Below are positions 27,501 through 28,840 of a stretch of 64,000 bases of DNA, one piece after another. A model generated the notes under the pieces. It was not told the origin of the DNA, did no database searches, and worked only from the letters and a program-made list of their open reading frames with translations. The position numbers were made by a program, and so were the translations under genes. The stretch's first letter is position 1; the number at the start of each line of letters is the position of its first letter. Origin of the DNA: Mobula hypostoma (Eukaryota). The stretch covers positions 75,022,001-75,086,000 of the forward strand of contig NC_086097.1 in NCBI RefSeq assembly GCF_963921235.1, in the 5' to 3' direction.

Positions 27501-28559
27501 AGAAACTCACCACTACATTTCAACGTGATCTGGAAATGCTTGAATTCTGTGCATTGGCTGCGTATAAGGCAGTTTAAATGCTTTATTGTTTTGAAATATG
27601 ATAGCTCTGCCTGGACAGCACCCAATAGTCTAATTGCTTATATGAAAAGTGTTCTGCAAGGGATATGTGTTCCTTCTCCATTGATCCTTGTCATAAAAGG
27701 TACCTACTTCATTTTTGCTGTGCATCCTAACAATTATACTTTGTGTTAAAGCTAGTAGTGGGAAAATTATTCAAGCAATGTCCATGAGCATGGCCTATTG
27801 CCTACAAACCATATTGTCATGTGTATTGCACATGGAAAGTGAGTTAACTATTCACTGTTGCAACTTAAGTGCGCCTTTTCATGTAGCTGTTGCTCTTGGC
27901 AGGGCTAGGGGGTTCTTTTTCGCTTGAAGCCATCAGAATCCCATAGGGCTGTTAGTAAATTCTGCAGGAGTGTGGCCAATGAAGGGACACCCCAAAGATC
28001 TATTTGCATTTTAGATGTGACAACTGGGGTTGTTGTTAAACCATCATGCGTATTGGAAACTGTTCTCATTTTAGGAGCTATCCGAATAGAGTTGCCTCTA
28101 CAGACGATGGAACTTGGTGGATGCTAAGACAGAACAATGGACAGTCCTGAGGCCCAAGTATTACAAAACTGTTCCAGCACATGAGCAGATTTTGTTCTAG
28201 CTATGAATGTGACAGCTGTATTGAGAATTTGTGCAGCATGTTCCTTCCAGACGTATCGGAGAGACGGATATAACACGTCCCAACTTTCAGTGAATACAAA
28301 TAGGTCATTGATGCACGCTCTCCATGGGGCTGGTGATTTTGGCAATTTCCATTTGGAAAGCTGCCAAAAACAGGAATAAGCTTTGCACTTCTATTACGAG
28401 ACTGGAACCTTACCAGATCAGGGCATAAATCAAGAGAAAGAGCCACCACAAAGAACCACAACAGAATTACGCATCCATTGCTTTCTTGGCATTTCCTATA
28501 ACCACCTTGTTCTCCGAAAAGCCAAGAAAAATCTACAAATAAGCAACTTATTAGATATA

Positions 28560-28824
28560 GATGAGAAAATCTGCAGATGCTGGAAATCCACACAACACCC
28601 ACAAAATGCTGGAAAAAATCAACAGGTCAGGCAGCATCTATGGAAAAGAGTAAACAATGGAGGTTTCAGGCTGAGACCATTCATCAGGACTGGAAAAAAG
28701 ATGAGAAGTTCTCATCTTTCTTTCCAGTCCCGATGAAGGGTCTTGTCCCAAGACATTGACTGTATACTGTGTTCCACAGATGCTGCCTGGCCTGCTGTGT
28801 TCCTCCAGCATTTTGTGGGTGTTG
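28560..28824. mobile_element. Palindromic Penelope-terminus-derived miniature element with hammerhead motifs on both strands
   Basis: Arms 28593-28707 and 28709-28824 are imperfect reverse complements around 28708. 17-bp TSD-like flanks at 28543-28559 and 28824-28840 (2 mismatches). Confidence 0.8.
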
Positions 28825-28840
28825 CAAAATATTAGATATA

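Follow-up and report, generated by a model that had tools for sequence, protein, structure and literature searches.

The palindromic locus at 28543-28840 of the window (the whole stretch of 64,000 nucleotides that was analysed) is bounded by two copies of a short direct repeat and comprises, in this order, a target-site duplication (TSD), a tail, an arm on the minus strand, a junction, an arm on the plus strand and the second TSD copy, with 266 bases in the palindromic sequence as a whole. Pairwise alignment of 28593-28707 with 28709-28824 shows reverse complements that are identical at 93 of 115 aligned positions, with one gap (81% arm-to-arm identity, the arms differing at 19%). The predicted RNA fold of the palindrome has an energy of -148.7 kcal/mol (z = -15.3) and none of 200 shuffled sequences folded as well, which bears out the palindrome described in an earlier note on this DNA. 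Rfam also gives a match to mir-4850 over the centre, but this falls short of the threshold (E 0.41) and is due to the hairpin. The same note had read the flanks as a TSD, and this reading holds: the left copy (28543-28559; 15–17 bp, AT-rich) and the right copy (28824-28840) match at 15 of 17 positions. The first two nucleotides (GC) of the right copy also fit the usual arm end; thus, the TSD is counted as 15 bp plus a 2-nt overlap with the arm end. Immediately to the left of the TSD, at 28482-28529, there is a short imperfect inverted repeat (21-nt arms, 81%).

Both arms are 5′-truncated pLTR ends of a Penelope-like element (PLE), delimited by alignment and by a profile of the terminal region. 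The left arm (28593-28708, minus strand) starts about 21 nt upstream of its hammerhead core and covers, with its tail, profile columns 2-139; the right arm (28709-28825, plus strand) has no tail, covers columns 2-103, and its last 2 nt are common to the TSD. Between the left TSD copy and the left arm lies a 33-nt segment (28560-28592, minus strand; outer limit accurate to about 3 nt) that corresponds to the PLE 3′ tail in reverse complement, as judged from the profile columns and from a 52-row alignment in which it lines up with the tails of 51 other near-full copies. As this tail is found on the left arm only, the unit is asymmetric, and the description of the locus as two symmetric arms had overlooked it. 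The head-to-head junction (28708-28709), whose 21-nt centre is unique in the genome, was placed by eye against longer copies of the same subfamily (L021, L022, L026), on which the two arms begin within 1–3 nt of each other, the arm with the tail being the longer by 1–3 nt. The core-to-core spacing of the two hammerheads is +43 nt. The stub has no coding capacity and shows no sign of later movement. In a search for expression, no RNA data set was listed as containing it.

Source element, neighbours and age

The window also contains a related coding PLE copy (59487-61262, plus strand), which is frameshifted and has a reverse transcriptase (RT), a linker Cys motif, a GIY-YIG domain and a 3′ end with a hammerhead but no tail. 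Its matches to RVT_1 (E 9.8e-6) and GIY-YIG (E 0.0089) are both below the Pfam curated cut-offs, and the GIY-YIG fragment had no match among PDB sequences at E <= 10. The right arm is 79% identical over 100 nt to the 3′ end of this copy, which supports the PLE origin of the arms. The earlier statement that the arms match the 3′ termini of the coding Penelope elements in the window is correct for these 100 nt, but the match omits the 16 nt adjoining the centre; these 16 nt belong to a sister subfamily, present in the longer copies L021, L022, L024 and L026, and it is from this sister subfamily that the arms are derived. Of these copies, L024 provides the link to the coding copy at 59487-61262 (66% over 472 nt). 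In L047, a long young relative, frames for RT and GIY-YIG were seen by eye, together with the Cys motif of the linker. Thus, by the match to the coding copy and by the frames of L047, the arms have the pLTR of an element encoding RT and GIY-YIG as their origin.

In both 60395-60904 and L047, a linker of the form C-x(2-4)-C-xx-C and two Cys inside the GIY-YIG motif were seen by eye. Neptune-type PLEs are described in PMC8557442 as having a CX2-5CxxC linker plus CCHH in GIY-YIG, and the coding relatives share with them the linker motif and the two GIY-YIG Cys. Nematis, however, has this linker motif as well; judged by motif, and with the categories of that paper, the coding relatives are probably of the Neptune or Nematis type.

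A second head-to-head PLE stub lies at 54884-55066 (identified by profile and flanks). It has one tail and a different junction (spacing -45), which is downstream of the hammerhead in one arm, and its 17-bp TSD has one mismatch. At 49702-49772 there is a weak Rfam match to the HDV-like drz-agam-1 ribozyme (E 0.1, below the gathering score), which sits inside a LINE-like RT frame on the opposite strand and is probably due to chance. Adjoining the palindromic locus is a Tc1/mariner copy (28841-30405, minus strand; terminal repeats at 28841 and 30394-30405) with TA on both sides and a broken transposase (HTH_Tnp_Tc3_2, E 1.4e-21). It entered the TA that ends the right TSD copy, and therefore postdates the stub.

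The insertion is found in two related species (organisms B and C), in which contigs lead from the unique left flank into 26–27 nt of the tail and show 20 differences over about 690 nt in B and 30 over about 650 nt in C; thus, the insertion predates the splits from organisms B and C. Together with the 81% identity of the arms, this marks the insertion as old. The TSD copies differ at 2 of 17 positions; young stubs, by contrast, have near-identical arms. Among contigs of four sequencing runs, three runs, one of which may come from the source sample itself, carry the left edge of the insertion and the contig of the fourth stops at 28546; an empty site, i.e., a joint from the left TSD to the right flank, was not seen among the 15 of 853 joints listed. 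There is very little doubt, in our judgement, that the locus is a single old insertion in which two 5′-truncated ends of an endonuclease-bearing PLE stand head to head, with one tail and a TSD of 15–17 bp. The earlier proposal that it was probably copied by the RT/GIY-YIG protein of a PLE is supported, though by inference.

Head-to-head stubs and the making of the two arms

For an unbiased sample, 160 evenly spaced stretches of 10 kb (1.6 Mb of a genome of 3.48 Gb) were all scanned with the terminal profile, giving 323 matches. Among neighbouring matches less than 100 bp apart, 36 pairs were head-to-head, 3 tail-to-tail and 8 in tandem; scaled up to the whole genome, this corresponds to about 78,000 short head-to-head stubs. 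Exactly one tail was present in 30 of the 36 head-to-head pairs, none in 5 and both in 1, where independence of the two arms predicts 17.8, 11.1 and 7.1, respectively (p = 4e-5). A direct repeat scoring at least 10, of 11–18 bp, flanks 12 of the 36 stubs, compared with 0.4% of mismatched flank pairs (n = 3,000); at the looser score of 8, the figures are 21 of 36 and 2.5%. Since comparable stubs have TSDs of 11–18 bp, that of the 28543-28840 locus is typical.

The earlier note had proposed that the palindrome is a replicating mobile unit, to be recognised by the recurrence of the same centre and length at many loci. The core-to-core spacings of the 36 sampled stubs are spread broadly from -134 to +34 nt, and none of them falls between 40 and 46, i.e., near the +43 of the present locus. 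A genome-wide search with a pattern around the centre gave 29 matches (16 in the control), among which the exact 21-nt centre occurred once, and the 10 loci matched by a pattern for the subfamily all differ in their centres. When old subfamilies were searched with strict junction patterns, 4 loci and 2 loci were found, all with different centres; as exact patterns undercount diverged copies, these two counts are lower bounds. A young subfamily (G000), with nearly identical arms and perfect TSDs of 13–17 bp, has at least 806 loci with both arms within 30 nt, and among the first 50 of these there were 41 distinct centres by eye, the commonest occurring 3 times. Junctions thus vary from locus to locus, which is the outcome that the earlier note had named as refuting its proposal, and a mobile unit with a fixed centre is not supported. 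In this young subfamily, helix II of the hammerhead is often closed by G-U rather than by G-C.

The observations that speak for a non-autonomous palindrome, transcribed and re-inserted whole by PLE proteins, are of three kinds: L002 and L003 have the same junction as 28543-28840 or its mirror image (in a search biased towards this junction), one young junction recurs at 15 loci, and PLE proteins can mobilise pLTR-flanked sequence in trans according to PMC3846280. Each of the first two weakens when the position of the tail is considered. The tails of L002 and L003 are, by eye, on opposite sides of an asymmetric centre. Of the 15 loci found genome-wide with the junction commonest among the 50 young loci listed, 12 have the tail on one side and 3 on the opposite side, and the loci carry different source variants; in the 14 of the 15 with two long arms, same-side arms differ by 3.3 and 3.8 per 80 nt, opposite-side arms by 3.5 and the two arms within a locus by 1.7. 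With the tail on either side and no arm-specific lineage, the junction recurs as a hot spot or by convergence, not by descent from a master palindrome. Features of a MITE-like family are absent from this material: there is no repeated length or centre, and no single-master descent is seen for the most repeated of the listed young junctions. Re-insertion of a whole palindrome is therefore very improbable, and most likely the stub at 28543-28840 was made once at its site and did not spread as a unit.

In the scheme we propose for the one-off insertion, of which the steps of cutting, priming and joining are inferred, the GIY-YIG nuclease would cut both strands of AT-rich DNA about 15 bp apart, and from each end of the staggered cut a short cDNA would be primed on one and the same uncleaved RNA. 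One 3′ end would start at an outer initiation site, thereby acquiring the tail; the other would start at an inner site about 33 nt further in, with 2 nt of target overlap in the case of 28543-28840. Both cDNAs would pass the hammerhead and stop about 20 nt upstream of it, after which their ends would be joined. Several of these steps have a counterpart in the in vitro work of PMC11167929, where the PLE protein of Anolis cuts AT-rich DNA on both strands and extends both, with uncleaved RNA as template and with reverse transcription starting at two sites, which bound the tail. That study found no difference between the two DNA strands in the start site, and thus the one-tail rule is not explained by the experiments it describes. 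The published scheme of PLE insertion has an inverted 5′-truncated copy, a tail of 30–40 bp at one end and a variable TSD (PMC8557442), and an inverted pLTR with a 31-bp tail and a 9-bp TSD, as well as palindromes at inverted junctions, are reported in PMC3846280; PMC8557442, in its treatment of the subject, calls the formation of inverted ends and one-sided tails unresolved.

That the two arms were copied from one template is indicated by their similarity within loci. In young stubs, the arms of a locus differ by 1.4 per 88 nt compared with 3.6 between loci, and none of 20,000 permutations was as low (14 of 15 loci; L163 was dropped because of a short arm). At 28543-28840, a G variant is common to both arms and is present in none of the 41 other scorable copies. 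Such arm-common variants could also stem from later gene conversion. They would equally be expected in an insertion of the same type whose second arm was made either on the first cDNA, folded back to prime itself (fold-back), as proposed in PMC3846280, or on an antisense template, as proposed for rotifer Penelope. The near-symmetric junctions at 28543-28840 and at many young loci are in keeping with such an origin.

The 5′ reach of the arms bears on the choice between the two. In the 30 one-tail pairs, as read from profile start columns, a measure that is crude for old copies, the tail-less arm extends further in 16, the tail arm in 8, and 6 are ties. Fold-back of the tail arm cannot yield a tail-less arm that reaches further 5′, which argues for two separate primings. 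In addition, the tail arms of L119, L101 and L146 are little more than the tail itself, and a tail cannot be copied from a tail-less arm. Thus, it is the stub population that favours double priming, whereas fold-back fits the 28543-28840 locus taken alone; separate priming of both arms is the more probable, with a substantial margin for error, and fold-back is rather unlikely. Some individual stubs add detail. In L123, L137, L090, L163 and L229, the tail arm has a near-fixed end point, whereas that of the tail-less arm frequently falls deep within the pLTR and in some cases coincides with a few target-matching bases. Two young stubs, L159 and L160, have a junction in common in which one arm seems to jump from one TTA triplet to another a little upstream of the hammerhead; the tail belongs to the complete arm at one of these loci and to the shortened arm at the second.

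The points at which the arms stop may fall at preferred sites. Upstream of the hammerhead in the subfamilies there are, in the copies listed and by eye, a YTNAY motif, a pyrimidine tract and CAG. Of 100 young arms, about 44 have their start no more than 3 nt from the CAG and about 30 have it at 10–15 nt, around the A of YTNAY (by eye); the search patterns favour short gaps, so that an excess at these sites is only indicative. In the subfamily of 28543-28840, the arm start is within the YTNAY motif at 7 of 10 loci by eye, including the locus itself, whose centre sits at the YTNAY A. We tentatively suggest, at somewhat less than even confidence, that the approximately 78,000 stubs are a record of PLE integration in which both DNA ends prime one RNA, one at each initiation site, and in which the junctions mark RT stops at the CAG before helix I and at the YTNAY A. 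Transcription might begin at the YTNAY A, or this A might be the branch point of an intron; in the latter case, the template would be a splicing intermediate. An initiator-like motif is noted in PMC3846280, and PMC4209133 reports that an intron of the D. virilis element ends at helix I. Contigs from one DNA run and from three runs presumed to be of RNA were compared with L047, and the 15 of 308 joints listed include no GT..AG joint that ends at the CAG before the hammerhead. Two joints near the hammerhead (L047:2990 and L047:3012), found in the presumed RNA runs only, have CT..AC and TA..AC ends that resemble splice donors of the antisense strand; that at L047:3012 is seen in 3 of 3 RNA runs, by one contig each, and is absent from the DNA run.

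Hammerhead motifs and cleavage

The hammerhead strings given in the earlier note are present on both strands as written. That of the minus arm (28655-28692) is a decayed minimal type I hammerhead: its core had been called intact, and the CUGAUGA and GAAA boxes are indeed kept, but the 10.1-11.1, 15.2-16.2 and 1.1-2.1 pairs are lost. That of the plus arm (28725-28762, plus strand) is broken, with changes at U4, G12 and A14 and loss of the 15.2-16.2 pair. The suggested search with Rfam, run over the 64-kb window, detected no hammerhead family at E <= 1, so the hammerhead call is based on a descriptor scan with the motif definition of PMC4209133. Among 172 sampled copies covering the motif, the core boxes are intact in 64, and 11 passed a strict test that includes the helices; the young copy L165 fails this test only through a G-U at 10.1-11.1. 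Ribozyme cleavage is rejected as the process that made the ends of this element: each arm includes the cleavage site and continues to about 20 nt upstream of the core.

Hammerhead motifs on both strands and a predicted rod-like fold might suggest an RNA akin to retrozymes or viroids whose hammerheads work in either polarity, and the earlier note had supposed an ancestor able to cleave itself when transcribed in either direction. In a head-to-head unit, however, the antisense arm is transcribed ahead of the hammerhead, whichever strand is read. In the whole unit, the predicted pairing probability of helices I and II is 0.00 on both strands, the 115-bp stem being predicted to bury both hammerheads; forcing the hammerhead fold would cost 23.4 (plus) and 33.8 (minus) kcal/mol, and 77.5 kcal/mol in the young, nearly undiverged L165, although both helices are predicted to form (0.6–0.98) when the L165 motif is isolated. 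Minimal hammerheads of this kind, as single motifs, are reported in PMC4209133 not to cleave as monomers. Both damaged motifs, the plus arm with its three core changes, are thus predicted not to cut, and given the early antisense arm, the costly fold and the single motif per strand, it is unlikely, on these fold predictions, that even the ancestor cleaved itself as a whole transcript. Furthermore, one hammerhead per strand means one cut, which is not enough to free an RNA of unit length. The defining feature of animal retrozymes is a set of at least two tandem hammerheads (bioRxiv 10.64898/2026.07.22.740005), and at 28543-28840 no tandem same-strand hammerheads were found, there being one on each strand. 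A retrozyme- or viroid-like nature is consequently the least credible of the readings considered here, and we regard the hammerheads as passengers of the pLTR.

Comparison with known systems

The insertion type is already known: the architecture is described in PMC8557442 and PMC3846280, and pairs of hammerheads on opposite strands are described in PMC4209133. The features found at 28543-28840, i.e., arms from a pLTR, head-to-head 5′ truncation, a single 33-nt tail, a TSD of variable length and a decayed hammerhead, are those of an inverted insertion of an EN+ PLE. The closest examples are the inverted-pLTR insertions of Pen2a_Av in Adineta vaga (PMC3846280; scheme in PMC8557442, fig. 2), which have a head-to-head 5′-truncated copy, a tail of 30–40 bp at one end, a short variable TSD, a near-palindromic junction and a hammerhead in the pLTR. 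The present locus differs from these in that both halves are only about 115–150 nt with no ORF left, and in that the TSD is 15–17 bp, whereas it is 8–10 bp in the rotifer examples of PMC3846280.

The minimal hammerheads of metazoan PLEs (PMC4209133), which include opposite-strand pairs 100–700 bp apart, have the same type I layout, an extra nucleotide before helix II, no real helix III and, in young copies here, the palindromic 15.2-16.2 region; both motifs at 28543-28840 differ from them in being decayed and 43 nt apart. The animal non-LTR retrozymes (bioRxiv 10.64898/2026.07.22.740005; PMC7229834) are likewise non-coding, PLE-related and furnished with a type I hammerhead, but consist of tandem same-strand repeats, whereas 28543-28840 is a single inverted pair. 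The inverted PLE architecture is given as a curation pitfall in PMC8969392. Among the PLE papers listed in the searched literature, which was mostly that outside subscription journals, none contains the term "twin priming", and no paper on shark or ray PLE hammerheads as such was listed.

By itself, the 28543-28840 locus is of minor importance, being a dead copy of an insertion type that has been described before and has tens of thousands of representatives in this genome; it does serve as a warning that single PLE stubs can mimic MITEs or two-strand ribozyme elements. The stub population is more valuable, since it provides testable numbers on PLE integration, namely the 30 of 36 pairs with exactly one tail, the template common to both arms and the sites at which arms repeatedly stop.

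In the twin priming of LINE-1, both target ends prime reverse transcription on one RNA, giving rise to an inversion inside the TSD. The separate priming of both arms proposed here for the PLE stubs would resemble this in the two-ended priming on one RNA and in the inversion within the TSD. The difference is in what is copied: the pieces of a LINE-1 inversion are adjacent parts of the RNA, whereas the two arms of a stub are copies of the same stretch, offset by the tail.
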